Shown: positions 9,662 to 40,065 of the stretch, piece by piece
Layout of the letters: every line of letters starts with the position of its first letter
Numbering within the stretch: the first letter of the stretch is position 1
From: Octopus vulgaris
Lineage: Eukaryota
DNA: 64,000 nt
Direction of reading: 5' to 3'
Assembly: GCA_951406725.2 (NCBI GenBank)
Contig: OX597822.1
Span: 35,650,001 to 35,714,000, forward strand
Notes under the pieces: generated by a model
Databases searched by the model: none
What the model saw: only the letters and a program-made list of their open reading frames with translations
Told to the model about the DNA's origin: nothing
Position numbers and translations under genes: made by a program

Positions 9662-10071
9662 AAATTTAGAGGAATGACCACTAAAAGTGGACAGCCCAGA
9701 GCATTCTGTATCTAGTTCTGGAAATTGTGTTTTGTAAACGACAGACTATGCTGATGATCTTGCAGATATTTGCGTGGCCATATACGTAGATATTAACAAG
9801 TGAAGCCAATGGTACATAGGTAATCGTTTTCTATTTCGTATATTTCCATTTGTCTTGCTTATTTTTACATTTTAGTTTTTTGCTGAGATTTTTCTTGAGA
9901 TCACATTCTTCGTGGTAATGGCGATTTGAAGTCTATGTTTAGCATATAGGCTGTCCACTTTTAGTGGGCATTCCTCTAAATTTTGTATGTAACACAATTT
10001 TTAATCTTCGAAATTTTTCAAAATATGCTAAGCCACTGGTTTCAATTGATTAATATCAATTTCTACCCTTG

Positions 10072-10078
<7 letters not shown>
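9659..10078 (+). mobile_element. (TA)n-flanked non-autonomous Penelope-like element fragment with a 5' inverted segment
   Basis: 9659-9696 is the reverse complement of ~9949-9986; contains an HHR motif; (TA)n on both sides. Confidence 0.7.
9746..9819 (+). ncRNA. Type I hammerhead ribozyme motif with long stem II (A15.1->G variant)
   Basis: CTATG-CTGATGA-[TCTTG..ATATTTGCGT..ACGTAGATAT..CAAGT]-GAAG-CCAATGG-TA-CATAG; stems I, II and III all pair. Confidence 0.7.
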
Positions 10079-10130
<52 letters not shown>

Positions 10131-10229
10131 TAGCTCTAGAAATTATTAGGCCAGTAACCCGCTTTCCATGGCGCATAAGTCGCTGAAGCTATACAATTCT
10201 CACAGAATGGCAATGTTATTAGTTGCGTG

Positions 10230-10968
10230 GTTGAAAGCCAGCAACTTTGAAGAAAGGTACAATGAAGTGGATGACATCGACATCAATACTTGACTGGTAT
10301 TTTATTTTATCAACCACGGAGGAATGGATGAAAGGCAAGATCAAACTTGGTGGGCTTTTGAACTCAGAACCTAAAGAGTCGGAAGAAAAACCGGTAATGA
10401 TTTTGTCCAACGTGCTAACGATTCTTTTCTATTAAAAGCACAAGGCGCGAAATTGGGGGTGGGGACTAGTTGAATGGATCGACTCCAGTACGCAACTAGT
10501 ACTTAATTTATCGACCCCGAAAGGAAGAAAGGCAAAGTCGACCGCTGCAGAATTTGAACTCAAAAGAGAATATTTTCTACCCTAGGCATAAGGCACGAAA
10601 TTTGTGGGAAAGGGCTAGTCGATTAGATTGACCCCAGTACACAACTGGTGTTCACTTCATCGACCCCGAAAGGATGAAAGGCAATGTTGACCTCAGCGGC
10701 ATTTGAACTCAGAACGTAGCAGCAGACTAAATACCTATTTCTTTACTGCCCACAAAGGGGCTAAACACTGAGAGAATAAACAAGGACAGACTAACGGATT
10801 AAGTCGATTATATCGACCCCAGTGCGTAACTGGTAGTTATTTAATCGACCCCGAAAGGATGAAAGGCAAAGTCGACCTCGGCGGAATTTGAACTCAGAAC
10901 GTAACGGCAGACAAAATACCGCTAAGCATTTCGCCCGGCGTGCTAACGATTCTGCCAGCTCGCCACCC
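10230..10968 (-). mobile_element. Cluster of four family A SINE copies or units
   Basis: Repeated TCGACCCCGAAAGGATGAAAGGCAAAGTCGACC...TTTGAACTCAGAAC. Confidence 0.85.
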
Positions 10969-11141
10969 TTATAGATTTCTTTTAGTTGCATAAAGATAAA
11001 TTCGATAGGATTATTTGTCCTTGGCACTTATTTTATTGTTCAGTGACAGAAAAAAGATATATAAAACAATTCTGAGAAAATTGATGGAAGTTTCAGTCGG
11101 AAAAGTTTATTTATTGAAGTTAATAAATTTGTATGTGTATT

Positions 11142-11173
<32 letters not shown>

Positions 11174-11427
11174 GGAGAGAGGAGACGAGAATCTAAACGT
11201 TTCAGACCTAAAAAATTCACTGAAGTCGGAATCAGTTGGATCTGGATTCAGGACGTAGAATGATGGAATCACATCTTGCCAGTAAATTTGATGAACCACT
11301 GTTTCTGATATCTCGCCAATGTTTTGCTTATTTGATTCTACAATACCGAAGTTATCAATAACCAGAAACATTGTTGTTGTTCTTTTTAATTATTAATACT
11401 AGCTTTCCTTTCATATATATATATATA

Positions 11428-12687
11428 TTGGGTTGGCAAGAAAGTAATTTCAGTTTTTTAGTGTGAAATAAAAGTCATTTCTTTTTTCATACAAAGAATG
11501 AACTTTAATCAAATATATATTTTCCATTTTGTTCTATGACCTTTTGCCATCTTTCTGGCAACTTCATGATTCCGCGCTCATAGAACTTCTGCGCCTTATC
11601 ACCCATAAACTCAAGCAAGGGCGATTTCAGGTCGTCATCATTATTGAAAGGTTTATCATTCAAAGAATTTTGCAAACTTCGAAATAAATGGTAATCTGAT
11701 GGTGCAGTGTCAGGGCTATATAGTGAATGTGACATTACCTCACAACCAAACTCCAGTAAATTTAGCAAATATATGTGTGGTCTAGCGTTGTCATGGAAGA
11801 ACACGATTCCGTTACGATTTGCCAATTCTGGCCGTTTTTCTTTGATTCCTTCCTCCAGTTTCTTTAGTTGCTAAGAGTAAACCTCTGAATTGAACATTTG
11901 GTTCCTTGAAAGCAGCTCAAAATACACAATAGCTTTGTAATCCCACCAAATTGACAGTGTGACCTTTTTATGCAATTGAGCTTTCCATGTGGTTTGTGCT
12001 GGTTCATTACGCTTGGACCATAATTGTTTTCGATTGATATTATTGTATACAAACCATTTTTCATCAACAGTGATGATTCGTTTCAAAGGAAGTCCATTTC
12101 ATTGCATTTTAGATGTTTGTCGCAAATACTGATTCGTTGTGTTAAGTGAATCTCTTTCAATTTATGTGGAACCCAAGTATCGAGCTTCTTAACGAGTCCA
12201 AGACATTTTAAATGATTTTCAGTTGTTGTGCACGATACATTCAACTTCTCTGCAATCTTTCGCGCAGTTATATGACAGATTCACTTATGGCTTTGATTCG
12301 ATTACCATAAGTTAATCGACCAGAACATTGGTCATCTTTAAGTGAAAAATCTCCAGAACAGAATTTTTTAAGCCATTTCTGACATGTGCGTTCTGTTAAG
12401 CAATCAACACCATAGATTTGGCATACCTCTTTGTGAGCCTCAGCAGCTTCCTTGCATTTACGAAAATAAAAAAAGCAAAATATGGCGAAAATGTTCGTTT
12501 TGCATTCCATGTTAAAATTGACACTGAACTAACAGCTTTAAACAAAATTACGTGCAATTTGCTTCTAAAGTAACTAAAAGTAGCGGCTATCAAATGTCAA
12601 AAGAAAAAATTATAACAGTGACAAAAGTCATGCAAAAAGTTCGTAACTCAATCTATTTGCGAAAAATAAAATTTCTTTCTTGCTAAC

Positions 12688-12691
<4 letters not shown>
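11428..12691 (-). mobile_element. Near full-length decayed mariner transposon (transposase pseudogene)
   Basis: TIRs TTGGGTTGGCAAGAAAG / CTTTCTTGCTAACCCAA flanked by TA; fragments ERTCQKWLKKFCSGDFSLKD, IITVDEKW, HDNARPH, YSPDTAPSDYHLF, split by frameshifts and stops. Confidence 0.95.
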
Positions 12692-12767
<76 letters not shown>

Positions 12768-12772
<5 letters not shown>

Positions 12773-13985
12773 TCATCCAATAAGTTCTGTCCGAGTTTTG
12801 AATAAAGAAAACAAGTGATCAAAAGTTATATTTAATTGAAATTTATTCATCAATGTACTTTCGCTGATTATCTGATTGCCTTCCATCTATCTACAAGCTT
12901 TTTATTCGCATCAATGTAAAACTTTTGGGGTTTCGAAGCGAAGAACTCTGAAATGTCAGTTTCGACCTCCTCCTGGCTTGCGAAAGTTATGTCCCTCAAA
13001 TGATTCTGTAAACTACGAAAGAAATGGTAGTCTGAAGGATCAAGGTCGGAAGAATAAGGTGGATGAGGAATTTCTTCCCAACCAAGCTCTTCGATCTTCT
13101 GTGATATGATTTTTGCAGTGTGGGGTCGCACATTGTCCTGATGAAGCATCACTCCTTTCGATTCACAAAAGCGGATCTTTTTTTCTTCAAAGCTTGGTTC
13201 AAAAGTAGACATGAGCATTGATTGTTGCATTAGGTGGTAACAATTCAAAGTGAATTACCCCTTTGCAATCCCACCAGATAGAGAGAAGAACCTTTTTCCC
13301 CATGAAGTTCCCTTCTCCGTTGTGGTTGAGCTTATTACCTTTTACCAAGCCACTGTTTACGACGTTTAACATTTCGATAGAAGATCCATTTTTCGTCAAC
13401 AGTCACAAGTCTATCCAAAAAGGATGAAATGAGTTTGCGAGAATGGAGGGAGAAGCAGATGTTAACCCGGGATTTGCAGTTGCTTTCGAACAATTCATGA
13501 GGCACTTATTTTCCAAGTTTAGGAAACTTTCCAAGTTGTTGAAGATGACAATGAACAGATGTATGGTTTGAATTATTGCCAGTACTTCAACTGATAATGC
13601 AGGATTTTCTTCAAGTAATGCCTCCAGGAGATTATCATCAAACTCAACTGGACGTCCTGTTCGATCTTCATCTTCAAGGCTGAAATCTCCACTTCTGAAT
13701 TTTGAAAACCATCTTATGCAAGTTATTTCATTCAAGTATTCTTTCCCATAAACTGGGTGTATGTTTCGAGTCGCTTCGACTGCAGTTTCCTTTTTTTGTA
13801 CTCATAAAGCATTATGTGCCTGAAATGCTCTTTGGATACTTCCATGTTAGAAAGGGTTTTAATCAAAGAAATTTTAATTCTATTATTCTGTAAAATAATA
13901 TTTCATTAGTTTAAATGTAAAGGAAATAAAATTAACGATATCCATAAATTTACTTTAATTATAAAATTAGTAAATTAAATAAAAG
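12768..13985 (-). mobile_element. Decayed mariner transposon (second subfamily)
   Basis: WFSKFRSGDFSLEDEDRTGRP, LLSIWWDCKGVIHFELL, HQDNVRPH, HPPYSSDLDPSDYHFF; TIR-like TCAGATCATCCAATAAGTTCTGTCCG at 12768; other end uncertain. Confidence 0.92.
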
Positions 13986-14432: not shown

Positions 14433-14512
<80 letters not shown>

Positions 14513-14601: not shown

Positions 14602-14900
14602 ATATATCAAACTAAGGTTAAAGAACAAACAAATACAAGGTCATCCGCATAACATTTCATAATTCGAACATTTAATCATAGAATATACATTTAAACATCC
14701 CGCAAGATGGAACATAATTCACCTGTACAAGCATATAAGCATATAATAAGGTGCGAAAAAAAAGTTCATCGCGGTTTAGAGTTAATAATTTAGCGATTCA
14801 GAAAAATAAATTTTTTAAAAAAACATTACAACATCTAGAAAGTAAAAATATAATATAAAGTAATATATAAAAATATATAGGTATATAAAAATATATAAAA

Positions 14901-14941
<41 letters not shown>

Positions 14942-15195
14942 GAAGCATATAAAAAATATATAATATATATCATGTAAATAAAATAAAAGTTCATCGTTTA
15001 GAAATTTTATAAAATTATTCAAGTAAGAGAAGCCTTATAGTTAAAAAAGAGGAAACCACATTTAATATGGTTTAAATATGGTTTCCTCTTTTTTAACTAT
15101 AAGGCTTCTCTTACTTGAATAATTTTATAAGATTTCTAAACGATGAACTTTTATTTTATTTACATGATATATATTATATATTTTTTATATGCTTC

Positions 15196-15237
<42 letters not shown>

Positions 15238-15524
15238 TTTTATATACCTATATATTTTTATATATTACTTTATATTATATTTTTACTTTCTAGATGTTGT
15301 AATGTTTTTTTAAAAATGTATTTTTCTGAATCGCTAAATTATTAACTCTAAACCGTGATGAACTTTTTTCTCGCACCTTATTATATGCTTATTGCTTGTA
15401 CAGATGAATTATGTTCCATCTTGCGGGATGTTTAAATGTATATTCTATGATTAAATGCTCGAATTATGAAATGTTATGCGGATGACCTTGCATTTGTTTG
15501 TTCTTTAACCTTAGTTTGATATAT
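14602..15524. repeat. ~920-bp fold-back (two ~455-bp inverted arms) between (TA)n tracts
   Basis: ATATATCAAACTAAGG...GGAAACCA mirrors TGGTTTCC...CCTTAGTTTGATATAT; the mirrored ORFs 14798-15022(-) and 15115-15345(+) give near-identical peptides. Confidence 0.95.
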
Positions 15525-16316
15525 GCATATATATATATATGTATATATAAATAGTATATATATAATATAAATAATATATATATGCATATATACATACAAA
15601 TATGTACATACTTATATATGTATATCCATACGCATATATGGGTATAGGACACCATAGAACGTAAACATGAAATACCAAAACATGGAATACGAACTTTTTT
15701 TGCGAACAACGAAAGAAACAAATGGAAAACAAGACAAGTAACATAAATAATGACCCTTCATCAGTTGTCAGCTGATTTATCTACTTCGCACTTGGAGCAA
15801 TTAGGACAAGATGCGCCTTTGACAAAATAGTTGCTTCCGCAAAGCAAATTAAATAAAATTTGGGATTTGTGGAGGGTCAAAGCTGGTAGCAAAAACAGGA
15901 CAGTGAAAACAAATAGTAAGGGCTGCTAAACCATAACGAGCTGAGGTGGCTACACACACACATAAACACACACACAGACACACATACACACACACACACA
16001 CACACATACACACACACGTCCATAACACGTTCAAAGGCCCGCGGCTTCTCAATACTTAGCTAATTTGCTGAAAGGCCTCACAGATTTACAATGTGTAGAT
16101 ATGGATGTTTTGAAAGAGCCATTAGATAAATTTTTATGATGTACTAGATAAACCTACGTCTCGGCAAAAAAATACAAGGGTGGCAGCTCCGTCAAATTCG
16201 TCGCTTCAGAACCGATCCCGGAGCACAGACCAGTCTAAAATAAACAAGAATTAGTGATAATGACGGAGCTCCTGGATGCCCACAGTTTCTGTCTGAAATT
16301 GATAATAGAAATATAT

Positions 16317-17216: not shown

Positions 17217-17255
<39 letters not shown>

Positions 17256-17285
17256 GTTATTGTTGTTGTTGTTGTTGTTATTATT

Positions 17286-17770
17286 GCCCTGATGCAGTAC
17301 CAGGCAGTGGCTCTCATGGCTTCTGATCTTAACTGATTGGAAGGGTTATCATGTACACTGTTTTGTCTTGGTATAAAAGATGCGCTACAGCAAATATTCT
17401 GCTCAATACTAAAGATTTGCTTGTCAGTTGTTTGACCTTAACCAGTTGACCATGTCCCTTACTGGCTGACGATATGTGCATCTCTGATCACGAGCAGAAG
17501 TAGTGGTGTTTCGTTCAACATTCTTAAACAACTGTTATTCAGGGACATTTTGAGCGTGATGGGTTACTCGACCAGAAGAAAATTCTAACTGGGCCCCACC
17601 TGCATGGTCATGCACTGTTTATCTTGATATGAGATCACCATGTCGCGCACATATGGTTGTGATGCCTGTGCCTAGTGTACCCCTATCAGACGGAAAGTCA
17701 TGATGGGTATACTGGGCTTCATATATTTTACCCCAGTGTCATTTTGATAGCATGCACTGCTCTTTCACTC
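17286..17770. mobile_element. (AAT)n-embedded interspersed repeat, copy 1
   Basis: Highly similar to 17937-18480 apart from an internal deletion; bounded by (ATT)n and (AAT)n. Confidence 0.8.
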
Positions 17771-17861
<91 letters not shown>

Positions 17862-17937: not shown

Positions 17938-18480
17938 TCTTAACTGATTGGAAGTGTTATCATGTACTCTTAACTGATTGGAAGTGTTATCATGTACATT
18001 GTTTTGTCTTGGTATAAAAGATGGGCTACAGCAAATATTCTGCTCAATACCACAGATTTGCTTGTCAGTTGTTTGACCTTAACCAGTTGACCATGTCCCT
18101 TAGTGGCTGACGATATGTGCATCTCTGATCACGAGCAGAAGTAGTGGGGGAGCATCATAGCCATGTGTTGAGAGGGATTCTTTGGGGTTTGAATAGTTCA
18201 CCTCTGGAAACATGGGTGGTTCTTTCAACATCCTTAAACAACCCTTATTCAGGGACCGTTTGAGCGGGATGGGCTACTCAACCTGAAGAAAATTCTAACT
18301 GGGCCCCACCTGCAAGGTCATGTGCTGTTTATCTTGATATGAGATCACCATGTCGCGCACATATGGTTGTGATGCATGTGCCTGGTGTACCTTTATCAGA
18401 CGGGTAGTCATGATGGGTATATTGGGCTTCGTATATTTTACCCCAGTGTCACTTTGATGGCATGAACTGCTCTCTCACTC
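17937..18480. mobile_element. (AAT)n-embedded interspersed repeat, copy 2
   Basis: Same orientation as copy 1; starts with a ~30-bp tandem duplication and ends CTCTCACTC(AAT)n. Confidence 0.8.
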
Positions 18481-18516
<36 letters not shown>

Positions 18517-19084
18517 GGTTTGAAATTTGGGTTCAATGCCAGCAATTTTAGCGGGAGGGATTAGTCAATTACATCGATCTCTATATTTGAAAAGTACTTG
18601 ATTTCATCGATCTTGAAATGATGCAAGGCAAAGTAAACCTCGTCGGTATTTGAACTCAGAACGTAAAAAGTCAGAAGAAATTCCACTATCCTTTTTATCC
18701 GGCGTGCTAACGATTCTGCCAACTCACCGCCTTCATCATAATATGTGGTTCAACATCCTATTGATGTAACTAGCTTTTTGTAGCAGTAGTAGCTAACCAA
18801 TCAAATCGTTAGTACTTAATTTAATTAGCTAAAGAGCTAAAGTTGAGGAATCGCCATTATCTTCAATAGAGTTTATGACAATTACAATTAGTCTATCAGT
18901 GACTTTATACTTCAACGGATATCATTGTGATGCACAGTTCACTATAAATATCTGACGAGTTACAAAGCATTATATAAAATTGTTGAATCAACATGATCAA
19001 GCAAAGGAATATCTGATATATTCGCCATGATTGATCGCTAGCCACTAAATCATTTCTTTTCTCTCTCCGTTTATTTCTGTGTTC

Positions 19085-19120
19085 CTTTCTGTTGAAGAGC
19101 GTAGGCTCGAAACGTAAAAG
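19085..19120 (+). ncRNA. Minimal type I HHR-like motif (A6->U) in a pLTR-like repeat (~19015-19220)
   Basis: CTTT-CTGTTGA-A-GAGC(GTAG)GCTC-GAAA-CG-TA-AAAG; related copies at 47775-47809(-) and 59945-59979(-). Confidence 0.6.
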
Positions 19121-19299
19121 ACTTTCTCGCTTCCCGAGCGTTAAACTTATTGCATCTGTTTGTTGTTTATACACCCGTCTTCGTCTTTTGTTTTCTTTGT
19201 TTTTCTGTAAATTCCAACTATATATGTATGTATGTATGTATATATACACACACACATATATATATATATAATTTTTCCGTAATGAGATAAAAACCAAGG

Positions 19300-20374: not shown

Positions 20375-21175
20375 TTCTATTCTTTTACTTCTTTCAGTCA
20401 TTCGACAGCAGCCATGCAGGAGCACCGCCTTTAGTCGAACAAATCGACCCCAGGACTTATTCTTTGTAAGCCTAATACTTATCCTATGGGTCTCTAAATT
20501 ACAGGTATGTAAACACACCAACATCAGTTGTCAAGCGATGGTGGAGGGACAAACACAGACACACACAGAGATATATACATATATATATATATAACAAAAT
20601 AATAAATAAAACATATGCATATATACATACATATATGTACGTACCTACATCTATATGTATATATACATGCATATATGGGTACAGGACACCAAAAAAACCA
20701 TCGAACACAATGAGAAACGAAAACATAAACACAAAACCAAACGCGGAATAGGCGGCTGAAGAAGGGGAATGTTCGTTGTTTAAGAAAAATGTCCATTTCC
20801 TTGGTTTTGTGTTTATGTTTTCGTTTCTCATTGTGTTCGACGTTTTTTGAGGGGGTGTCATGTACCCATATATGCATGTATATATACATATAGATGTAGG
20901 TGCGTACATATATGTATGTATATATGCATATATTTTATTTATTATTTTGTTATTATATGATAGAACGCACGCATCCACTTCTAAGTAAGTTTTATCTTAA
21001 AAATATATATATATATACACATACGACGAGCTTCTTTCAGTTTCCGACTACCAAATCCACTCACAAGGCTTTGGTCGTCCCGAAGCTATAGTAGAAGACA
21101 CTTGCTCAAGGTGCCATGCAGTGGGACTGAACCGGAAACAATGTGACTGGGAAGCAAGCTTCTTACCACACAGCT
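20375..21175 (-). mobile_element. Family B SINE interrupted in its microsatellite by a fold-back element
   Basis: SINE tail at 20375-20570 and head at 21020-21175. Confidence 0.8.
20590..20956. repeat. Fold-back element with ~150-bp arms and a ~60-nt loop
   Basis: ATAACAAAATAATAAATAAAA...CACAAAACCAA mirrors TTGGTTTTGTG...TTTTATTTATTATTTTGTTAT; same family as 45707-46485 (ATATATGGGTACAGGA end). Confidence 0.9.
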
Positions 21176-21862: not shown

Positions 21863-22925
21863 CGAGGTGGCATCAAAACGTTCCCGGACTAAGTTTTGTA
21901 ACGCGCCAAAGGACGGCAGCACATGGTTGCGCGTAGTGAGAGCTAGCAGTGACCTTCATGAATCAGTGTGCTGAGTGGAATCGCTTCGTTGGGAAATTGT
22001 GTTTTTTGTGATCACGTGAATGCTGTAGTCTGCGATTTTGTCATAAACAAAAACAAAGAGCCAAAGGCGGCGAGCTGGCAGAAACGTTAGCAGGCCGGGC
22101 AAAATACTTAACGGTAATTCGTCTGCCGCTACGTTCTGGGTTCAAATTCCGCCGAGGTCGACTTTGCCTTTCATCCTTTCGTGGTCGATAAATTAAGTAC
22201 CAGTTACGCACTGGGGTCGATGTAATCGACTTAATCCCTTTGTCTGCCCTTGTTTGTCCCCTCTGTGTTTAGCCCCTTGTGGACTATAAAGAAATAAAAA
22301 AAACAAAGAGCCAAAGTGAAATTTAGCGTTAAACTTGAAAAGTCTGCTACGACGATGAGGCAATGGGTCATACACAATGTTTCGAGCGGCATGGGTACTT
22401 CAAAGGTGGAAGAACGTCCCTGGAGGACAATGAGCCATCTGGAAAACCTACTATGGGCGTTGCCTTCAGAAATGTACATCGAAGATTCGTCCCTCATGGC
22501 CAGGCTGTCAATAGAGAGTTCTACTGTGACGTTTTGAAGTTTTTAAGGGAGGTCATTCGGCGAAAGCGACCGGATCTGCGGAGTGCGAAGAATTGGATTC
22601 GTCACCGAGCTCTCTTTACTCGTGAGTTTCTCGCCAAAAGCAACATAATATTGCTTCCACACTCGCCTTATTCGCCAGGTTTAGCCCCTGCGAACTTCCA
22701 TTTCTTCCCCAAGATGAAAATGCAGCTCTTAACACCGTTACCGAAAGCCATAGCGAAAAGCAGGTCCTCGACTCGCTTACAGAAAACGACTTCGAGGTCG
22801 GATTACAAAAGTGACAGGAATGCTGGGACCGATGTATTGCGCAGGGTGACTATTTTGAAGGAGATGATGAAAAAACTTAAGGTAAATAAGTTATATTTTA
22901 TTAAACATAACTAGTCCGAGAACCT
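21863..22925 (+). mobile_element. Internally deleted mariner with a nested SINE
   Basis: FKGGRTSLEDNEPSGKP, EFYCDVLKFLREVIRRKRP, HSPYSPGLAPANFHFFPKMK; TIR-like TACGAGG..GTTCCCGGACT / AGTCCGAGAAC. Confidence 0.88.
22066..22297 (+). mobile_element. Family A SINE inserted in the mariner
   Basis: Full head; target duplication AAAAACAAAGAGCCAAAG on both sides. Confidence 0.92.
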
Positions 22926-23741: not shown

Positions 23742-23785
<44 letters not shown>

Positions 23786-23881
23786 TGGGGGATAAGTTCA
23801 GAAAAGAACAATTCAAACTTCTTGAGAGGTCCAAAAAGATCCATCATATACATAAAAAACAACCAGAGCAAGTAATATGGA

Positions 23882-24266
23882 TGGAAGCACTCCGTCGGTT
23901 ACGACGATGAGGGTTCCGGTTGATCCGAATCAACGGAACAGTCTGCTCGTGGAATTAACGTGTAAGTGGCTGAGCACTCCACAGACACGTGCACCCTTAA
24001 CGTAGTTCTCGGGGATATTCAGCGTGACACAGAGAGTGACAAGGCCGGCCCCGTGAAATACAGGGACAACAGAAACAGGAAGTAAGAGTGAGAGAAAGTT
24101 GTGGTGAAAGAGTACAGCAGGGATCACCACCATCCCCTGCCGGAGTCTCGTGGAGCTTTTTAGGTGTTTTCGCTCAATAAACACTCACAACGCCCGGTCT
24201 GGGAATCGAAACCGCGATCCTATGACCGCGAGTCCGCTGCCCTAACCACTGGGCCATTGCGCCTCC
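23882..24266 (-). mobile_element. Full-length tRNA-derived SINE (family C)
   Basis: Head GGAGGCGCAATGGCCCAGTGGTTAG...GGTTTCGATTCCC; TSD AGAGCAAGTAATA at 23865-23877 and 24267-24279. Confidence 0.92.
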
Positions 24267-25037
24267 AGAGCAAGTAATAAGAATATGAAAGCAGTAGTTG
24301 AAAAATATCGTTATAGGTATAAATATACCATTAACAATTATAGGAAAAATGAAGGAGAAAATAGGATCCAATGCATACGCGTGTTTCAAAGGACAATACA
24401 AATATGTAAGAAAAAAAATTATAATCATAGTAATTATAATTAAATGTATGCATTGTCATTCTAATCAGTGTGAAAACTTTTTGGAAGGACATCAAAAGAG
24501 GTTTAATAAAATAGAGTAAATTAAAATAGGATACAATAAAGGAGAATACAAAAGGTGCAATAGGGAAAATGAGATATTTACAAGCAAATATGTATGTGTA
24601 AGTGTAAGCAGATTCTTTTGTGTGTGTATATGCGTGTGTTGTGTATGTATGTATATGTGTATGGCTGTGTATCCTTATGTAATCGGTAAAACTAAACACG
24701 TGTCTGTTTTGGCACAGAAAGCTGGGGTTAGTTACGGACATTTGGATTATGTAAGTAATTCTTTTGTTAATAGTTGAAACCGCCGGTGTGTGATTAATTC
24801 TGTTTTTTTATATAATTTTCATCTGTCTTGCCCGCCTAATTGTTCTGGTGTTCGCTGAATTTTCCTCTCGAGAACATTCTTTGTAGTTTGATCGTTGGTG
24901 ATCTATTTCTAGCATACGGCCGACTAGCTAGCGGTCTTGCCCTTTGAATATACACATGTATTAGAATTTTCTCTGATTTTTCAGATTTTTGTATGCTAGG
25001 CTACTGGTTTTAAATTAATATTAATTTATCTCCCTCA

Positions 25038-25082
<45 letters not shown>

Positions 25083-25207
25083 TAAAAGGAATTCCAACCT
25101 TGTCTGATTTTCACGTTTTATTTACAATCTTATAATGATATAATATAAGATAATATAATATAATAAAATAAAATAAAATAATAGAATGTTAAATGTTCAT
25201 TTTGATT

Positions 25208-25250
25208 GAACTAGTACTTTCATGCATTAAATTATGCAATCTTCAGGTTC
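25208..25250 (-). ncRNA. Minimal type I hammerhead ribozyme motif
   Basis: Minus strand: GAAC-CTGAAGA-T-TGCAT(AATTTA)ATGCA-T-GAAA-GTAC-TA-GTTC; intact core and palindromic stem III, as in Penelope-like pLTR HHRs. Confidence 0.75.
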
Positions 25251-25490
25251 TTGTAGTAGTGGTGACAGTCATGCTTCACAATTTTTGACTGTAGCGAGAT
25301 GGTTACATCTGTGCCTTAAATACACCTGTTGAGGCTCCAGATTGCTAGGTTTTACAAACTGTATTCTGACCAATCAGTGTGTAGCATCACTCAATTACTT
25401 AAGCTGATTGGTTTAGGCGTCACGCTTTGTTGAACATGTCAAGAGTCCTGTATCTTAACCCTGGCCGAGGCAGCAATATATACACACCCG

Positions 25491-25535
<45 letters not shown>

Positions 25536-25709
25536 ATACATAAGCATACATATACATACATACACAGAAATACACGCACATATATATATACACATATGTA
25601 TATATATACACATACACATATATACATACATATATACACACATATAAAAACATGAGCACAAGGACATAAACATGCCCACACAAGCACACATACGTACATA
25701 TATACATAC

Positions 25710-25740
<31 letters not shown>

Positions 25741-25829
25741 CATACATACATACACACATACATGCACACGCAGAGAATATGTACATACACATAACCTAAG
25801 AGTGTAATAAGAACTAATAAGAAAATGAA

Positions 25830-26520
25830 AAAGAGGTAATCAATAAGACTATTTAAGGTTAATGAAAAGAAATTTGGACATATGTTTACAAGAGAAACTC
25901 TTTCATCTCTCCAATTTAAGATAGAATCATTAATTTTCATAATTATATAAGACTCTTCAAAGCATAAAAAGCACGTTCTATTTCTAATCCTATAAAAGGG
26001 AGCAAAAGAAACAATATAAGAAATTGAGAAATTGATGTTGTCTCTTTTAAGTTGCCATACCTTTTTTGGATAAACTAGTACTACTTTCTTTCCGAGGATC
26101 ATTAAAAGATGATTTATGATTATTCAAACGTAATTTAAAGAGGGTTTACGTGCACCCTGTATAATGAAACCTAGAAAGATCATGTGTTGTAATAGTAGCT
26201 TTATATACATCTTTCATTTTACAATTACCTTTAACCTCACAGGTGCTAGGGATTCTACAGTTACAATTGTTACTAATATTAGACGTACTATTGTTATGTG
26301 TATGTGTGTTGATAGAGGAAGAGTTTGTATGAGTATGGGAATCGTTAGTGGAATATACAGAGCTATTTGAATAATTGGGGTTACTATAAGTTGTAGAGGA
26401 GGTAAAATTCTTGTAGTAAAGATTTAGATTTCTGTTGTTAAAGGAACAAATAATCCCAAATAAGTTAGGAGACTTGCATATCCCAGCATACCTAGATTTA
26501 TTAAAATTTGATAAATAGAT
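25830..26520 (-). pseudogene. Penelope-like retroelement C-terminal GIY-YIG endonuclease fragment (one stop, one frameshift)
   Basis: Hand translation: ...CNCRIPSTCEVKGNCKMKDVYKATITTHDLSRFHYTGCT*TLFKLRLNNHKSSFNDPRKESSTSLSKK/VWQLKRDNINFSISYIVSFAPFYRIRNRTCFLCFEESYIIMKINDSILNWRDE; Cys cluster, VY..YTG (GIY-YIG equivalent), R..NH, and CxLCxEE. Confidence 0.85.
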
Positions 26521-26605
26521 GTTGACATCATAACGAAGTTATAAATTCTTATAACACTAACATCAATTTTCAAAACGGAGAATAGAATTCGAAAAATTGC
26601 TTTGG

Positions 26606-26859: not shown

Positions 26860-26994
26860 TTATATATACATATATATATACATATATATATACGTACATA
26901 TATATACATGCATGTACATATACATATATATATACATATATATACATATATATATGCATATATATACATATATATATGCATATATATACATATA

Positions 26995-27374
26995 CTAGCA
27001 GTATCGCCCGGCGTTGCTCAGGTTTGTAAGGAAAATAACTATAAAGCATTTTTAGAGAGTTATAGCCAAAAAATAGCAAAAAAATGGAAAAAAAATGATG
27101 GTAAATTTTTTGAGAGTTAAAAAAGGTGGAGTTGCGTCCCCTAGACGGTCTGTGGTTTGGGTTTCTGATTCTCGACCCCATGTCGAATTTATCGATTTTT
27201 TCAGAACTGGGGGAACTTTTCAAAATTTTCGCTGCGTTAGTTTTGAATTATGACATTGGGCTATGTGTGTGTCAAGTTTCATCAGAATCGGTTGAAAGCC
27301 GTGGTCAGAGTGAGGGTACAACCAAACAGACACACAGAAACACACACAGACAAACTGCCGTTTATATATAGAGA
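26995..27374 (-). mobile_element. Non-autonomous Helitron
   Basis: On the minus strand: 5' TC, short GT-rich tract, subterminal CC.GAGCAACGCCGGG hairpin-like motif, 3' CTAG; same family as 44465-44840. Confidence 0.75.
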
Positions 27375-27512
27375 GATATACATATATATATGCATATATA
27401 TACATATACATATATATACATATATGAACATATATATATGTATATATATATGTATATATATATATATGTATATATGTATATATATATGTATATATGTATA
27501 TATATATATGTA

Positions 27513-27569: not shown

Positions 27570-27808
27570 TATATATATATATACATAAATAATACATAAA
27601 TATATATATACATAGTGTATATACATATACACTATATGGATAACTCTAGTGCTAAAAATAGCTCCGAAGCAACCACAGAAGATCCGTTTCCAACTAGAAT
27701 CAACACACATTTAACTGAAGGAAAGTGAAATGCAACGAATAAAATAGATTAACTCTATACAATTGTTTTTGACGCCCGAATCGATCTAATTAATTGCATT
27801 TCTGACAA

Positions 27809-27884
27809 ACTCTACCGAAGATTTATGGATGCAAGTGTAAGTAAAACTACATATTGCATTAGTAATGAAACAATTGTATAGAGT
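27809..27884 (+). ncRNA. Type I HHR motif with long stem II (U4->C variant), copy 1
   Basis: ACTCTA-CCGAAGA-[..ATGCAA.TGTA..TACA.TTGCAT..]-GAAA-CAATTG-TA-TAGAGT. Confidence 0.72.
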
Positions 27885-28301
27885 CAATCTATTTTATTCG
27901 TTGTATTTCACTTTCCTTCAGTTAAATGTGTGTTGATTCTAGTTGGAAACGGATCTTCTGTGGTTGCTTCGGAGCTATTTTTAGCACTAGAGTTATCCAC
28001 ATAGTGGATAATTCTCTAATAATTTATGTATAAATTTGTATTTTCTCCGTAGTTTTTTGTGCTAAGCCACTTGGTGTTAAATTGACGGTATTATTAAATT
28101 AATATCGATTTTTCACCCTCATTTATAATTTTATAAATTTAACCATGCGGCAGTTAATATTTTATTTGATGCGGCATACGTTTCCAATGGAGTCTAGGCA
28201 TGCTTTTGGCGCGGAATTTGAGACATAACTAAAAATGTAATTGGTTGGACCGCTCGTGTTTTTGACGCCCGAATCGATCTAATTAATTGCATTTCTGACA
28301 A

Positions 28302-28377
28302 ACTCTACCGAAGATTTATGGATGCAAGTGTAAGTAAAACTACATATTGCATTAGTAATGAAACAATTGTATAGAGT
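28302..28377 (+). ncRNA. Type I HHR motif, copy 2
   Basis: Same sequence as 27809-27884, 493 nt downstream. Confidence 0.72.
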
Positions 28378-28628
28378 CAATCTATTTTATTCGTTGTATT
28401 TCACTTTCCTTCAGTTAAATGTGTGTTGATTCTAGTTGGAAACGGATCTTCTGTGGTTGCTTCGGAGCTATTTTTAGCACTAGAGTTATCCACATAGTGG
28501 ATAACTCTCTAATAATTTATGTATAAATTTGTATTTTCTCCGTATTTTTTTTTTTGTGCTAAGCCACTTGGTGTTAAATTGACGGTATTATTAAATTAAT
28601 ATCGATTTTTCACCCTCATTTATAATTT

Positions 28629-29619: not shown

Positions 29620-30630
29620 TCGTTTTTACTTTAAGGATGGGGAATTTTGGGGCTCCTGTGTGCTTGTGTTTGTCTTCATGTCAGGTGGAGTATGGAGTGG
29701 ATTGGTGTCTGTAGGGAGTGGTTGGGGTAGAGTGGGTGTTGGTGTGGGCTAGGTGAGTTGGTTGGAGGTCATCCTTTACCGCGTGTATCCTCCTCCTTTT
29801 TCTTTTCTTCTCCTCTATCTCCCAGCTGTCGTTTGACTCCTCTTCCTCGATTCTAGTAGTTGTCTTCATCTGTCGTGCCATATCCTTTTCCTCCACGGGC
29901 TGTGGAGCCCCTACCACTTTCACTCTCTCCTGAGCCTTTTCTTGTGGTCTGCAAGACCACCACGTTCTCCTCAATGCCCAGCAGTACGGCAGCCACCAGC
30001 CAGGCTACATTTACTTCTGGTGGTATGTCCTCCCAAGGTACACAGGTAGCGGTACTACCTCATCCGTTTCCAACGGTGTGGCCGAGTACAGTTTAGCAGT
30101 TACTATCTCTCTAAACTGCACCTCCACCATTCCATATTTCCGTCCCCTGGCAAGGTATGATATTTCCTGCTAGATTGACGTTAGTGCCTTTTCCACCTGT
30201 GCCTCCGACACCACTTCAATTTTCCTTGCTTCCACTGCGTAGGTTCTGTAGACAATCGCCCTTTCTTCCTTATCCTTTAATACTTCTTTGGCGGTGAGGG
30301 GGACAACTTTACATCGTCCCCCCTCCCTTTCAAGCATTTCCTTAAACTAACTCAACTCCTCCAGATTAACTTCCCCATTTTTTTTCCTTTAGCCGCAGCT
30401 GCATAGTTCCTAATTTCCATCTCCTTGTCTATATTTTTCAAGCATTCCACCAACTCCTCCTCAGACGAATCGAATTCTGGGGAAGAATACTTTAACTTCT
30501 CATAACTCCTCGTTCGACACCCCTCCATCACAGAAGAGGGAAAACGTCACAGCCAAAAAAAACATGCACAGCCAAAACACACGTCCGACTCGCTCAAAAC
30601 CAACAAACCAAATGAATCTTGGGAAACCGA
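29620..30630 (-). mobile_element. Decayed ORF1 (gag-like)-only retroelement, copy 1 (internally deleted)
   Basis: Colinear with 31171-32460 in the 5' leader, the IVYRTY / YLARG..GxxEVQ / VAAVLLGIEE coding remnants and the 3' end. Confidence 0.7.
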
Positions 30631-31170
30631 AAGTGAGTTTCTTTATTTCATGGAAATTGGACATAAAGGCCTTAGATAGAGGGGACAGCACAAGGTGGGG
30701 ACAAGGAAAAACAAAACGAATGGAATTAATGAAATTATACAATGAAAGATGAAATGAAGCCGCTCGGCCCCACCTTCGAGCCTCTTCATTGAACCCTTTG
30801 CAACACCATTTACATTAACCTTTTGCAACAACTAATTTATACAACACTTTTTTTAATTACATTAATTTAAAATACCAATAATCCTGCTTTTGTAACAGCT
30901 AGTTTTCTTTTTTAGACAAAACGTTTGTCGTATATTTTTTTAATATAAACAGGTCTTATCAAGTCTGCCATTGTTCTGGTATCTATCCTCTTGGTCATAA
31001 TCGCATTCTTCCTCGTAATCCATTAATTTTACAAGGCACCCCAGGTATACCATCACACAGCGCAAATGCCCGGGTAACACCCTTACTTTTGTTAAATCCA
31101 CCTTAATAATTCCATTCTACGAGTTTATCTCGTTATCAAGATTTTCATTTTCTCCGTCATATAATATTAC

Positions 31171-32460
31171 ATTTTTTTTATTACCGGTAAAGGGTGGGGA
31201 AATTTTGGGCTTCTGTATGTTGCAATTGTTCTTTTGTTTTTGGGTTTTTTTTTGTCAAACTAGGCATAGGAATGGTTGGTGTCTGTAGGGAGTGGCTGGG
31301 GTAGAGTGGGTGTCGGTGAGGGCTGGGTGGGTGTGGGTTGTGGTCATTTTTTACCCTATGTGTCTTTCTCCTCTTCCTGCTTTTCTCCACCATTTCCCAG
31401 CTAGTATTCGATTTTTCCTCCCTCTCGACACTGGTGCCTGTCTTCATCTGTGGTGCCTCATCTCTTTCTTCTTCCTCCACGGTCAGTGGAGCGTCAATCA
31501 CTTTTTCGTTCTGTATCACCTATCTTTTTCTTGTAGTGGTGGACACTCCGCTCTAATGTGGCCTTTCAGGATGCATTTATTGCATCGCAGAATCCACTCT
31601 TCCACTCTGACCTTTAATACTGTCTCTCCAACTGTGATAATCTCGACCATTCTTTTCGCTGTCCTCCTCCGCGATTTGTACCACTATGTTAAGGGTTTGT
31701 CTCTTCCAGATCCTGTTAGGTGTTCTGGTTGCCTGTAGTACCACCACCTTCTCCTCCATTCCGAGTAATATAGCAGCCACCAGCCAGGCTACATCCATTA
31801 CTGAGAGTATTTCCTCCACCCTAACCCTAGAAGCACGCCACCTCCCTAGGTATACGGGTAGAAGAACTACCTCATTCGTTTCAGGGGTGTTGCTGAATGC
31901 AACCTGGCGGTAGCTACCTTTTCAGACTGCACCTCAATTGTTCCAAATCTTTTGCCTCTGGCAAGGTACGAAATCTCTTGCCAGACTGGTCTCAAGGCCT
32001 TTTCAATCTGTGTCGTATTCATGTTTTCAAATTTTCCAGCTGCCATTGAATATGTTCTATAAACTATCATTCTTCCTGCTTTTTTCCTTTAAGACTTCTT
32101 CGGGGGGGTGGATGCCTTCACTTCGATCCCTTCCCTTTTCAGCATTCTCTTGTACTTGTTTACGTCCTCCAACCTTATTTCTTCGCACTTCTCCGTCGCT
32201 GCAGCATAGCTTCTTTCTTCCAAAGTTTTGACTATCTTATCCATGCACTCCACCATCTCCTCTTCTGACGACATATATTCCAAGGAAGGGCAGCCTTCAA
32301 TGCTCGAAACAGAGCGACTCAAAACTTCACAACTTCTTGTTCGACGTCCCTCCATCTCAAGAGGAAAAACGTCACACAGTCAAAAAACACGCACAGCCAA
32401 AAAATGATCCGTCTCGCTCAAAACCAACAAGCCAAAGGAATCCTAAGAAACCGGAAGCAA
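31171..32460 (-). mobile_element. Decayed ORF1-only non-LTR retroelement with a CCHC zinc knuckle
   Basis: 31543-31584(-) encodes CNKCILKGHIRAEC (CX2CX4HX4C); upstream RSYAAA and YLARGKRFGTIEV resemble L1/Tx1 ORF1; ends in AATAAAAAAA without ORF2. Confidence 0.75.
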
Positions 32461-35620: not shown

Positions 35621-35654
<34 letters not shown>

Positions 35655-35757
35655 CTTAATCCAAACATGAAAACACAAAGAAAAAACACAACAATGCGAG
35701 GACGTGGAACAGGTATAGTGTTATTGGACGCTCAGGAAAGGAAAGAACGAAGGAGGA

Positions 35758-35789
35758 TTTAACGTTTCGACGGGGCTTTTCGTCAGAAA
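35758..35789 (-). ncRNA. Minimal HHR-like motif in a pLTR-like repeat (~35655-35815)
   Basis: TTT-CTGACGA-A-AAGCCCCGTC-GAAA-CG-TT-AAA; stem II is decayed; homologous to 63871-63906. Confidence 0.55.
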
Positions 35790-36427
35790 CATGGGAAAAG
35801 GAAAGATCCAGACGTCACTAAGGTGATTAATGCTGCAAGTCAGCACCAGCATTGTTAGAAATAAGTCAGAACAACCCTTAGAGATGGGGAGGCACTTATC
35901 TAACAACTGCCAAGGGAGACAAGCACGCTACAGCAAGCGATCTATACTTGTGCGTTTTGGTTGAAAACTGCGAATAAGCCATCTTAATAATTTGTATATA
36001 TATATATATATATTTGTGTGTGTGCGTATGTGTTTGTGTGTGTGTGTGCGTGGGCATGTGTGTGTGTGTTCGATCTCACGTATATGTTTGGAAAGATGTG
36101 TAGAATTAAAAATACGTTTGGAATGAGTCATTTATAATTGACAGATTCTTTTCCCCGGAAAGACACAAGTGACATATCACTTATTTATATAGTGACATAT
36201 TGTGTTGCGTCCAAATTGTAAAAGAGAACAGAAGGAAAAGGAAAAACATGAAATATCTTCATACAAAATGCAGAAGATATTGTGAAAACAGTTGCTGGAA
36301 TATATTTTACGATTTTTTTCAAACTTAGACATAAATATTAATTTAAATAACAAATACGGCTATAAACTTCTATGAAACAATACTCCAGACATGTCTCTGA
36401 TGCCAATTATATATATATATTATTAAT

Positions 36428-36812: not shown

Positions 36813-36842
36813 AAATATTATTAATACGATGGTTGCTGTAAA

Positions 36843-37395
36843 TCGGCGAGCGGGCAGAAACGATAGCACGTCGGGCGAAATCCTTAGCGGTATTTCGTCT
36901 GCCGTTACGTTCTGAGTTCAAATTCCGCCGAGGTCGACTTTGCATTTTATACTTTCGGGATCGATAAACTAAGTACCAGTTACACACTGGGGTCGATATA
37001 ATCGACTTAATCCGTTTGTCTGTCCTTGTTTGTCATCTCTGTGTTTAGCCCCTTGTGGGTAGTAAAGAAACAGGTATTTCGTCTGCCGTTACGTTCTGAG
37101 TTCAAATTCCGCCGAGGTCCACTTTGCCTTTCATCCTTTCGGGGTCGATTAAATAAGTACCAGTTACGCACTGGGGTCGATATAATCGACTTAATCCGTT
37201 TGTCTGTCCTTGTTTGTCCCCTCTGTGTTTAGCCCCTTGCGTGTAGTAAAGAAATAGGCATTTTGTCTGCTGTTACGTTCTCCGTTCAAATTCCGCCGGG
37301 GACAGCTTTTCAACCTTTCGCACTGGGGTCGATGTAATCGTCTTAATCCCTTTCTCTGTTATTGTTTAACCCTACCGTGCGAAATAAAGAAATAA
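36843..37395 (+). mobile_element. Family A SINE trimer
   Basis: Units restart at ~36890, ~37073 and ~37258. Confidence 0.88.
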
Positions 37396-37474
37396 ATGTT
37401 GTTGCTACTATTATTTCTTGAAGTATAATTCTCACTTGAAGTAGTCAAGTACAGATATGATATGTTACTCTTTT

Positions 37475-37856
37475 TTACTCTTTTACTTGTTGCAGTCATT
37501 TGACTGCGGCCATGCTGGAGCACCGCCTTTAGTCGAGCAAATCGGCCCCGGACTTATTCTTTGTAAGCCTAGTACTTATTCTATCGGTCTCTTTTGCCGA
37601 ACCGCTAGGTTACGGGGACGTAAACACACCACCATCGGTTGTCAAGCGATGGTGGGGGACAAACACTGGCACACAAATATATACACACACATACATATAT
37701 ACGACAGACTTCCTTCAGTTTCCGTCTACCAAATCCACTCAAGGCATTGGTCGGCCCGAGGCTATAGTAGAAGACACTTACCCAATGTGCCACGTAGTGG
37801 GAAAGAACCAGGAACCATGTGGTTGGTAAGCAAGCTACTTACCACACAGCCACTCC

Positions 37857-37857
<1 letters not shown>
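37475..37857 (-). mobile_element. Family B SINE
   Basis: Reverse complement of 6159-6580. Confidence 0.88.
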
Positions 37858-37894
<37 letters not shown>

Positions 37895-38124
37895 TGGACG
37901 GATTGTTTGTTTTTCTTTTTCTATATACCAATGAGACAGCGTTCATGATTTCAAAACGAAACCTGTTGAGATTCTAAAGATTGAATATGTCAAAGGTTAA
38001 GACTATTTGGACTAAATGCGATTCAGGATAACTTGTTCGCGACACTTGTAGAAGATCGAAAGAGAGTAATAGGCGCTACCCTTCCTCCTGTCACAGAGAC
38101 ATGAATTCTATTCTTAATAAGAGC

Positions 38125-38271
38125 AGGCATAGTTTTGTATGCTTTGCAACCACATGATTTCAGGTTCAGTCCCACTGCACGGCAATTTTGACAAGTGTCT
38201 TCTGTTATAGCTCTGGGCCGACCTTAGCCTTATGAGTGAATTTAGTTGAATGAAACTATGTGGAAGCTGTC

Positions 38272-38305
<34 letters not shown>

Positions 38306-39140
38306 CAGTGGACAACTGTTATATATATATAACTGTTATATATATATATATACTGTTATATATATATATATATATATATAACTGTTATATATATATATAA
38401 CAGTGGACAACAACATAAGCTAGGCTACACATATAAGCAGCAAAGTTGACATGGCCCGCAGAATGTGTTCCTGGATTCTCAGAACCTTCCAGTCGAGAGA
38501 TTCCCACGCTATTATCCTTCTCTTCTCCACTTTTGCCCGACCCCACCTTGAATACTGCTGTCCACTGTGGTCTCCCTACACAAAACAAAATATTATGAGA
38601 ATTGAAGCTCCCCAAAGGTCAATCACAAAAAAGATAGATGGCATGTCAGACCTTGACTACTGGGGTAGACTAGAGAAGCTGAAATTGTATTCACTCCAAC
38701 GACGCCGTGAACGCTACATTATCTGTATGATGTGGAAAATATTCCATCAGCACTGTCCGAATGATGTTGGCATCACCTTCAAAATGCATCCAAAGCTTGG
38801 ACCACGTGTTATCCGTCCACAACAAAAATCTAAATCGCATCACATAACGACAATACGGCACAACTATTTCACCTCAATTGGACCCGCTCTCTTCAACATT
38901 ACACCAGGACACGTCAAAAAAGAAACTGACCACACAAAATTCAAGAAGTCTTTGGACAAATTCCTTCAAACAGTACCGGACAAACCACCCACACCCGGAT
39001 ATGTCTCCGCAAACAATAACTCTCTGCTCGAATGGGCCTTGGTGCCCAAATCCTGAACTGAAAGACTTCGCCAGGTGGTGCTATTAAGTTAGACATGGCC
39101 TGGGCCAATACTGGCCAAAACCTTTCTAAGTTATTCTAAG

Positions 39141-39198
<58 letters not shown>

Positions 39199-39455
39199 AT
39201 TATGTATGTATATATGCGCGTGTGTGCGTGTGTGTATATGTATGCATGTCTGTTTTTGAATTTGTTTATGCCATCCCACTGCTTGAAAACTGGTGTTGGT
39301 TTATTTATGTCCACGTAACTTAGCGGCTCGGCAAAGCAGACCGATGGAATAAGTACCGGGCTTTAATAAATAAGTACTAGGATTAGTTTGTTCGACTAAA
39401 CCCTCCAACGTGCTGCTCCAGCATGGACGCAAGCTAATGACTGAAACAAGTAGAA
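38125..39455 (+). mobile_element. Family B SINE split by a LINE insertion in its microsatellite
   Basis: Head at 38125-38275, tail at 39260-39455, CR1 fragment in between. Confidence 0.7.
38398..39142 (+). mobile_element. 5'-truncated CR1-group LINE (ORF2 C-terminus, ORF 38451-39056, plus 3' UTR)
   Basis: RPHLEYCCPLWSPY...QRSITK...YWGRLEKLKLYSLQRRRERY...FKKSLDKFL; short tandem tail TTCTAAGTT ATTCTAAGTT. Confidence 0.92.
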
Positions 39456-39624
39456 AGGAATGGACAAAAGAGAAGTAGGGAGAGTGGAGAGCTTGTAAGA
39501 CCAGATGAAGTCGTGGTGTGTAAAGGAATCACAGAACAGAAGGACTGTTTGAGGTACGAGAGGACGTGAGAAAGGGAATGCAACTAAGAAATATATTATG
39601 AAGGCAGAAAAGAGCATATATATA

Positions 39625-39689
<65 letters not shown>

Positions 39690-39693
<4 letters not shown>

Positions 39694-40065
39694 TAATCAA
39701 TATAGGGTAGCAAAAAATTCAGCAGAAATTATTTTGCTACCAGCGGTCTAGTGAGAAAAAGGAAATAGTCAGAGACTATTTATAAATTCAACAGCAAATT
39801 AAGGAACGGCCATAATAGGCCGTTCAACCCACTAGAAATAACAGCCAAGGCTTCAACCGCAAAATAGTAGTAATTCCGTAAATCAGGAGAAAATTTTAAA
39901 AAATTTTAAAAATTAAAAAAATCAGGAGAAAATTTTAAAAAATTTTTTTTAATGTTTTTTTTATTTTCTCCTGATTTACGGAATTACTACTATTTTGCAG
40001 TTGAAGCCTTGGCTGTTATTTCTAGTGGGTTGAACGGCCTATTATGGCCGTTCCTTAATTTGCTG
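39690..40065 (-). mobile_element. (TA)n-flanked asymmetric fold-back element
   Basis: Arms at 39792-39892 and 39965-40065; unpaired terminal segment at 39690-39791. Confidence 0.8.

Follow-up and report, generated by a model that had tools for sequence, protein, structure and literature searches.

A covarying RNA fold shared by the 3′ ends of diverged, (TA)n-anchored repeats in Octopus vulgaris

Introduction

The reverse transcriptases (RTs) of Penelope-like elements (PLEs) are the sister group of telomerase. PLE insertions comprise inverted 5′-truncated copies, partial tandems and a one-sided tail of 30–40 bp (PMC8557442, PMC3846280), and targeting of (TA)n tracts is a PLE trait (PMC8557442). 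How PLE RTs choose their RNA and start on it is known from one in vitro system, in which a purified Poseidon protein nicks each strand of AT-rich DNA and extends both. There, reverse transcription begins inside the RNA, at two positions within a stem-loop located 3′ of the hammerhead, and the stretch separating these positions constitutes the tail (PMC11167929). In this work, we analyse a group of (TA)n-anchored repeats in a stretch of 64,000 nucleotides of the Octopus vulgaris genome (GenBank assembly GCA_951406725.2, contig OX597822.1, forward-strand positions 35,650,001 to 35,714,000; hereafter the window, with position 1 as its first letter).

A first-pass annotation had seen a terminal motif shared by several of these repeats and had read it as a cis-acting tail. 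The motif is real, the observation being partly confirmed and the reading partly supported: the motif forms the 3′ portion of a conserved RNA fold that spans about 160 nt and is common to five diverged elements, here called A (at 9.9 kb), B (24.9 kb), C (28.5 kb), D (39.8 kb) and F (41.4 kb). Counts were taken over the unique part of the window (1–50881), as positions 38830–50881 recur at 50982–63027 in a 12-kb direct duplication (98.8% identity, with a 100-N gap between the copies) that is probably an assembly duplicate (an uncollapsed haplotype or a scaffolding artefact); its copies were left out except in model searches.

Results

The terminal motif belongs to a larger fold

The six strings quoted in the first-pass annotation were all found where it had placed them, and the motif is common to A, B and C, with a profile from any two of them recovering the third at E values of 4–5e-7. 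The quoted ends at 28060 and 28557 form one tandem duplication (98.4% identical; copies C1 and C2) and are not two independent cases. The looser version proposed for D (39700–39752) was not significant by sequence when held out (E 0.9–3.6), whereas D matches the shared fold in full. The second looser version, at 41105–41127, lies in a related locus (E), but its CCCT directly follows a hairpin that is internal in the fold (P4), and it was ruled out as a terminal motif. A further member, F (41316–41642, minus strand), had been missed, and showed an E value of 1.4 by sequence when held out.

Alignment revealed another conserved box, which lies some 90 nt further upstream and is complementary to the motif. 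The resulting model is a three-way junction made of P1 (5 bp), hairpin P2, a UAUUU-type joiner and P3 (7–9 bp), with P3 enclosing the inner hairpin P4 and a U-rich loop. The 3′ strands of P3 and P1 are contiguous, with no linker, and are followed by 1–2 U, the terminal hairpin P5, a two-base overhang and, after 0–16 nt, the (TA)n tract. The fold ends 8 (A), 7 (B), 16 (C2), 14 (D) and 0 nt (F) from (TA)n, and 513 nt from it in C1, the inner tandem copy. The order of parts is identical in all members. Although the families differ at about 24–38% of aligned positions even within the fold, the core pairs of the P1–P2–P3 junction and the UAUUU joiner are its least variable part, and the loops and the sequences of P2, P4 and P5 differ freely; in F, the fold is one base shorter at the P3/P1 junction and P1 is imperfect. 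Protein coding was rejected as the main cause of the tail's conservation, given stops in four of the five members.

CCCT itself, said to sit shortly before (TA)n, does so only weakly. The unique part holds 47 merged (TA)n runs, and CCCT lies 4–21 nt before the run at 8 of 94 flanks, against about 3.4 expected, four of the eight being members of the family. F has no CCCT, and CCCT was rejected as the signal. Separately, a minus-strand flank at 46542–46760 carries CCCT 10 nt before (TA)n, does not match the fold and is possibly an unrelated element end.

The element bodies had been described as looking unrelated. This stood for four of the six pairs among A, B, C and F, in which 17–261 of 500 shuffles reached the score, much like an unrelated control (18–219 of 500). 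In contrast, homology between A and B extends along about 350 nt, the two aligning back through the hammerhead (0 of 500 shuffles reached the score), and the pair A–C is marginal (9 of 500).

Covariation, model searches and folding

The pairs of P1 and P3 are kept in 48 of 48 instances in A to D (column-shuffle p 5e-5; 1 of 24 strand permutations), versus 11–21 of 48 in slid-register controls, and those of P3 in 35 of 35 instances in the five members (p 3e-5; 1 of 120 permutations). In a MAFFT alignment of A, B and D, double-sided changes were present at 9 of 17 pairs, a result found in 0 of 500 shuffles, and RNAalifold on a plain alignment predicted P3 unprompted, with double-sided changes.

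A covariance model was built from A, B and D, with C and F held out, and the whole window was searched with it. All 11 matches at E ≤ 1 were family copies, with held-out C at 52.9 bits (E 2.4e-8) and held-out F at 30.4 bits (E 6e-4), whereas the sequence-only model gave 29.9 bits (E 2.9e-8) for C and 13.6 bits (E 3.5e-3) for F and also found the short copy of E (E 0.005). A descriptor of the fold gave six matches, all of them members, versus two in 30 shuffled windows. With its joiner freed, it returned 38 rows, each of them twice, and only member rows lay within 20 nt of (TA)6. No Rfam family reached its gathering score in the window; an Rfam scan by E value was swamped by microRNA models matching microsatellites (150 of the 273 matches listed), and separate scans of A, D and F gave weak, sub-threshold matches only. 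The bipartite DNA pattern of the fold had no match in a collection of bacterial and archaeal genomes.

When folded without constraints, B and D adopt the model as their minimum free energy (MFE) structure, as does F clipped to its unit, and A and C form P1, P4 and P5. Folding z-scores were −3.7 (A), −2.1 (B), −4.4 (C), −6.2 (D) and −3.8 (F).

Hammerheads, inverted partners and the tail

A type I hammerhead lies upstream of the fold on the same strand in A, B, C and F. Between its predicted cleavage site and P1 are 97 nt in A, 94 nt in B, 81 nt in C and 77 nt in F, in a spacer of 48–55% U. The core is intact in A and F, and one base off consensus in both C1 and C2. An isolated motif resembling a hammerhead core was also seen at 8570–8592.

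At four of the six loci (A, C, D and E), an inverted partner lies head-to-head with the element and extends at its 3′ end into a different (TA)n tract. All four partners stop at P4, either inside it (C) or 10–17 nt after it (A, D, E), so that two kinds of 3′ end are present, one at P4 and one after P5. The stretch that all four partners lack measures 92 (A), 102 (D) and about 140 nt (C) and holds the motif of the first-pass annotation, which therefore corresponds to the PLE tail. A type I hammerhead in the 3′ repeat, inverted and tandem copies and a one-sided tail are all PLE traits. The cis-acting tail originally proposed thus holds as the probable 3′ signal of PLE-type, (TA)n-targeting, hammerhead-bearing retroelements, with the correction that the conserved unit is a covarying RNA structure starting about 115 nt upstream of the quoted motif.

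Anatomy of the individual elements

Element A lies between (TA)n targets at 9630–9659 and 10078–10128. Its short inverted copy (9660–9696, minus strand) consists of P4 plus about 10 nt and is devoid of the 92-nt tail. The type I hammerhead follows on the plus strand (9746–9819), with its intact core, a palindromic stem III and predicted cleavage after 9814, and had no match in Rfam. The conserved fold (9912–10069, plus strand) contains P1 (9912–9916 with 10032–10036) and P3 (9939–9947 with 10023–10031), in addition to P2, the joiner, P4, the terminal hairpin P5 and a 2-nt overhang, and includes the motif at 10026–10069.

Element B (plus strand) starts after a (TA)20 run with a 5′ body (23784–24690) that is purine-rich (47% A over 24280–24600) and carries an insert resembling a short interspersed nuclear element (SINE; 23865–24278), flanked by a 12-bp direct repeat. 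A degenerate hammerhead remnant (24718–24795), aligned to that of A and with a broken core, precedes the conserved fold (24883–25035). The upstream part includes about 400 nt that are purine-rich and ORF-like (ORF, open reading frame) and may be a decayed ORF end, its likeness to a GIY-YIG remnant having been judged by eye. None of the three forward frames matched Pfam, and the two of them searched against large protein sets, by phmmer and a word index, gave no match. As a candidate inverted partner of B, the DNA to its left scored 35, below the mean of 38 for shuffles, and was rejected.

Element C is a partial tandem. A short inverted copy (27611–27763, minus strand) ends inside P4, after which some 25 nt of fold-back filler lead into (TA)n. 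It is followed on the plus strand by the 5′-truncated copy C1 (27764–28130; hammerhead-like motif 27809–27884, fold 27960–28119) and by C2 (28131–28632; hammerhead-like motif 28302–28377, fold 28453–28616), a complete unit of about 500 nt with no ORF, with (TA)n from 28633. Just after the 3′ end of C1, in a stretch not copied at the end of C2, a 27-codon frame with an ATG start (28143–28226) could be a remnant ORF start. Among the members, only C, with its ORF-less tandem unit, looks like a non-autonomous element.

The long copy of D (39690–39900, minus strand; fold 39860–39704) is truncated before the hammerhead position, and its short inverted copy (39960–40066, plus strand) ends 12 nt after P4, without the 102-nt tail. 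At E, a short inverted copy (41030–41092, minus strand) with the joiner, the 5′ strand of P3 and P4 ends 17 nt after P4, and is followed by a degraded long copy (41091–41195, plus strand) that starts inside P4, has an uncertain 3′ boundary and was missed by both the structure model and the descriptor. Element F (minus strand) comprises the conserved fold (41316–41472) and a type I hammerhead (41544–41602) with an intact core and an irregular stem II, missed by a strict descriptor and matching the Rfam hammerhead weakly (E 2.4, below the cut-off). Second copies of D, E and F (51842–53794) lie within the 12-kb duplication and are not independent. No ORF was found in A, C, D or F, which are truncated or non-coding.

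A Hydra-type relic without the fold

The only recognisable PLE coding relic of the window, a Hydra-type element (25080–26560, minus strand), reaches (TA)n without the fold, and serves as a non-member and negative control. It lies tail-to-tail with B, sharing with it the tract at 25043–25079, is interrupted by microsatellites, and contains a CxCX5C linker, a GIY-YIG-like remnant and a hammerhead (25250–25208). It was identified by reading against the Hydra consensi in the supplement of PMC8557442, with no match to hidden Markov models or databases. As a query it revealed no second relic of its kind in the unique part of the window, and of 114 pattern matches outside the window none was confirmed, nor was any of nine protein candidates. 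Since this relic and, by reading, six Hydra consensi and five cephalopod Naiad 3′ ends have no fold, not all (TA)n-targeting PLEs share the signal, and the fold marks one lineage.

Other repeats of the window

The DNA of the window is AT-rich, repeat-dense and of animal character, with mariner relics and a number of short interspersed repeat families. Besides the members, another group of elements that are anchored in (TA)n and in part palindromic (15521–15911, 20585–20958 and 45652–46541) shares a different, CCTGTACCCATATATGC-like terminal motif, with hammerhead-like or half-core motifs upstream; this CCTGTACCCATATATGC-type group is probably another PLE lineage with its own tail. Two further small repeat families with minimal hammerhead-like cores end at TA-rich runs (19053–19270 and 47653–47843; 35650–35800 and about 63720–63900). 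A near-perfect inverted repeat of 934 bp (14602–15524, 95%) contains (TA)n runs in each arm, and a 445-bp repeat (93%), which may be Helitron-like, lies inside (TA)n in opposite orientations at 26948–27392 and 44443–44887.

Decayed mariner-type transposases were present at 12868–13801 and 22339–22914, as well as at 11505–11870 and 41848–42369, and three of five mariner-type frames matched Pfam (E 7.5e-6, 1.7e-9 and 0.01), the last two having no match. Open frames of about 210 and 130 aa (38424–39056 and 40118–40518), presumably resembling the C-termini of long interspersed nuclear elements, had no Pfam match. In addition, a tandem repeat pair whose copies terminate in (AAT)n runs (17327–17805 and 17968–18515) and an old duplicated segment (29694–30633 and 31269–32457, 65–75%) with coding-like relics on the minus strand were observed.

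Discussion

We consider it roughly two-thirds probable that the elements described here are 3′ ends, made up of pseudo-long terminal repeat (pseudo-LTR) and tail, from a single (TA)n-inserting Penelope-like lineage that has diverged into several families, and that the fold is the signal for binding and start-site choice by the RT-endonuclease. That the feature functions as a PLE 3′ end is highly probable in itself. Membership in the PLEs rests on anatomy, because no ORF is linked to the elements.

What the window itself shows is the fold, its covariation, the position of the hammerhead, the two classes of 3′ end and the (TA)n setting; the mechanism below is inferred. Under this proposal, an RT/GIY-YIG protein would bind the P1–P2–P3 junction, which holds the least variable part of the fold, and nick both strands of a (TA)n tract, and reverse transcription would start internally. 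Two alternative start sites, both A/U-rich and single-stranded, would serve for this: the first directly 3′ of P4, within the loop closed by P3, and the second directly 3′ of P5. The head-to-head pairs with a tail at one end (A, C, D, E) would arise when two complementary DNAs (cDNAs) extend towards each other, one from each nick, and become joined where their 5′ ends are truncated, a single event would produce B and F, and read-through of a tandem or circular template would give C1–C2. Most copies are probably 5′-truncated, and C may be a true non-autonomous family.

Several results weigh against this proposal. The sample consists of five independent but related sequences (A, B, C, D and F) from one window, so that the shuffle p-values overstate the support, and the helices and the descriptor were drawn from the same sequences on which they were tested, which tilts the numbers towards the fold. 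By sequence alone, neither D nor F reaches significance, structure adds bits to the model but little to the E value (2.4e-8 versus 2.9e-8 for C), and the covariance model did not recover E in the window. A and C prefer an alternative to P3, the model costing 2.5 kcal in A and 0.6 kcal in C, with P3 pair probabilities of 0.21 and about 0.3, respectively, and F with extra flank folds otherwise (probability 0). As single-stranded DNA, the fold is about equally favourable. The hammerhead has a broken core in B and a variant one in C, and in D it would lie beyond the truncation; the tails (92–140 nt) are longer than the published 30–40 bp, and no RT or endonuclease ORF is linked to any member in the window.

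The absence of a recognisable ORF from every member would also suit a history in which one autonomous enzyme mobilises, by means of its tail, several independently arisen non-coding hammerhead families of a retrozyme-like kind. This differs from the favoured proposal in history and leaves the role of the fold the same; we hold it possible, though on balance unlikely. C, an ORF-less unit of about 500 nt in a head-to-tail tandem with two hammerhead-like motifs, is what such a family might look like, and non-autonomous PLE derivatives have been described (PMC8557442; bioRxiv 10.64898/2026.07.22.740005; PMC7229834). However, 5′ truncation, which is the norm in PLEs, explains short copies without parasites, the homology of A and B extends back through the hammerhead, and B carries an ORF-like, purine-rich 5′ part, while a divergence of about 24–38% even in the fold fits separate lineages with enzymes of their own. 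One machine serving many parasites is unproven. It is rather doubtful that the fold is instead a control element in the 5′ untranslated region of the next tandem copy, in which P3 would hide two sites, a splice acceptor (the YAG that follows the U-rich joiner) on one strand and a start codon on the other, spliced RNA being translated and unspliced RNA serving as template, although this would be compatible with the favoured proposal. All six loci have an unchanged AG in P3, preceded by a pyrimidine run, B and C carry the donor-like GTAAGT at positions that align (AGGTAA in A), the 3′ strand of P3 holds an ATG in A, B and F, with the frame of A open to (TA)n, and PLE pseudo-LTRs are described as holding introns and the first codons of the ORF (PMC8557442, PMC11167929, PMC3846280). 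Yet C and D have no ATG and keep the pair instead, the frame is closed by stops in B, C, D and F, the last of which also has no donor-like site, and GTAAGT occurs 30 times in the unique part of the window.

Two other explanations account for the fold without a selected RNA structure. Elements of the Helitron type have a terminal hairpin close to AT-rich targets. A signal in single-stranded DNA, belonging to a rolling-circle, non-autonomous element (Helitron or Helentron-like), would agree with a terminal hairpin 0–16 nt from the end and with a model fold that is the DNA MFE structure, or within 0.4 kcal of it, in all five members; nevertheless, the hammerheads lie on the same strand at a fixed distance, G–U pairs are kept in P1 and P3, no fixed 5′ terminus is seen, and the 5′ truncation of variable extent, the inverted partner and the tail on one side are as in PLE insertions, making this the least probable of the explanations considered. 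That the members simply retain homology from an old repeat, without selection on structure, is highly unlikely as well: A, B and C can be aligned by sequence alone and AT-rich DNA folds easily, but decay would break pairs, and instead double-sided changes were found at more than half of those scored.

A covarying fold across barely alignable families gives the question of RNA selection and start in PLEs a concrete target that can be mutated, and offers a structure-based way of finding and grouping repeats now labelled unknown in (TA)n-rich genomes. Masking of a splice site, if true, would bear on intron retention in PLEs. More speculatively, and with a probability that we consider low, the junction RNA may be both an RT-binding domain and a ruler for the two start sites, lying partly 5′ of a masked splice acceptor, so that only unspliced RNA forms it; this would explain intron retention in PLEs together with inverted pairs that have a one-sided tail. 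Telomerase RNA has protein-binding domains, and the proposed junction RNA would be their functional counterpart.

Comparison with known systems

A cross-family fold at PLE 3′ ends was not found in the open-access literature, a weak negative with Repbase and Dfam outside the search. Motif searches of the accessible supplement of PMC8557442 gave no match at an element end, although motifs split by line ends would escape them. PLEs of the Hydra clade, including Hydra-1_Obim, are alike in (TA)n targeting, and their hammerheads resemble those of A and C in the unpaired U flanking stem II and the short palindromic stem III. In contrast, the fold is absent, by reading, from the ends of the six printed consensi, as it is from the Hydra-type relic of the window, and the members, whose 3′ ends are not Hydra-like, are not filed under Hydra. 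PLEs of the Naiad clade, which occur in cephalopods, are alike in (TA)n targeting and in inverted and tandem structures, but have no canonical hammerhead, and the fold was absent, again by reading, from five cephalopod Naiad 3′ ends; the members are not filed under Naiad, as A has a complete type I hammerhead.

Metazoan retrozymes of the non-LTR kind (PMC7229834; bioRxiv 10.64898/2026.07.22.740005) are similarly small, non-coding, low-GC units with a type I hammerhead and a link to PLEs, and C resembles a retrozyme dimer. They differ in forming tandem arrays, versus single units with inverted partners in four of the five members here, and the cores of C are variants; as only C is tandem and both of its cores are off consensus, the members are not filed under retrozymes.

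Poseidon_Ac (PMC11167929) is alike in having two 3′ ends that define the tail, a structured start region downstream of the hammerhead and an AT-rich target. In Poseidon_Ac, a single AC-rich stem-loop within the ORF contains both start sites next to each other, whereas those proposed here would be about 90–140 nt apart, A/U-rich and placed after two hairpins. The accessible text of that paper reports no cross-family structure, its RNA structure figures lying outside this comparison.

A close likeness in anatomy is to the pseudo-LTR and tail of endonuclease-bearing (EN+) PLEs (PMC8557442; PMC3846280), which share the type I hammerhead near the 3′ end, 5′ truncation, (TA)n targets, the head-to-head inverted copy, the partial tandem and the extension at one end. 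They differ in carrying ORFs and in a tail of 30–40 bp, against 92–140 nt in the members, and no covarying, cross-family, multi-helix fold is described for them in the accessible portions of these papers. The element class, the hammerhead, the target and the tail are already known; what appears to be new is the covarying fold that the families share and the way it fits the two ends.

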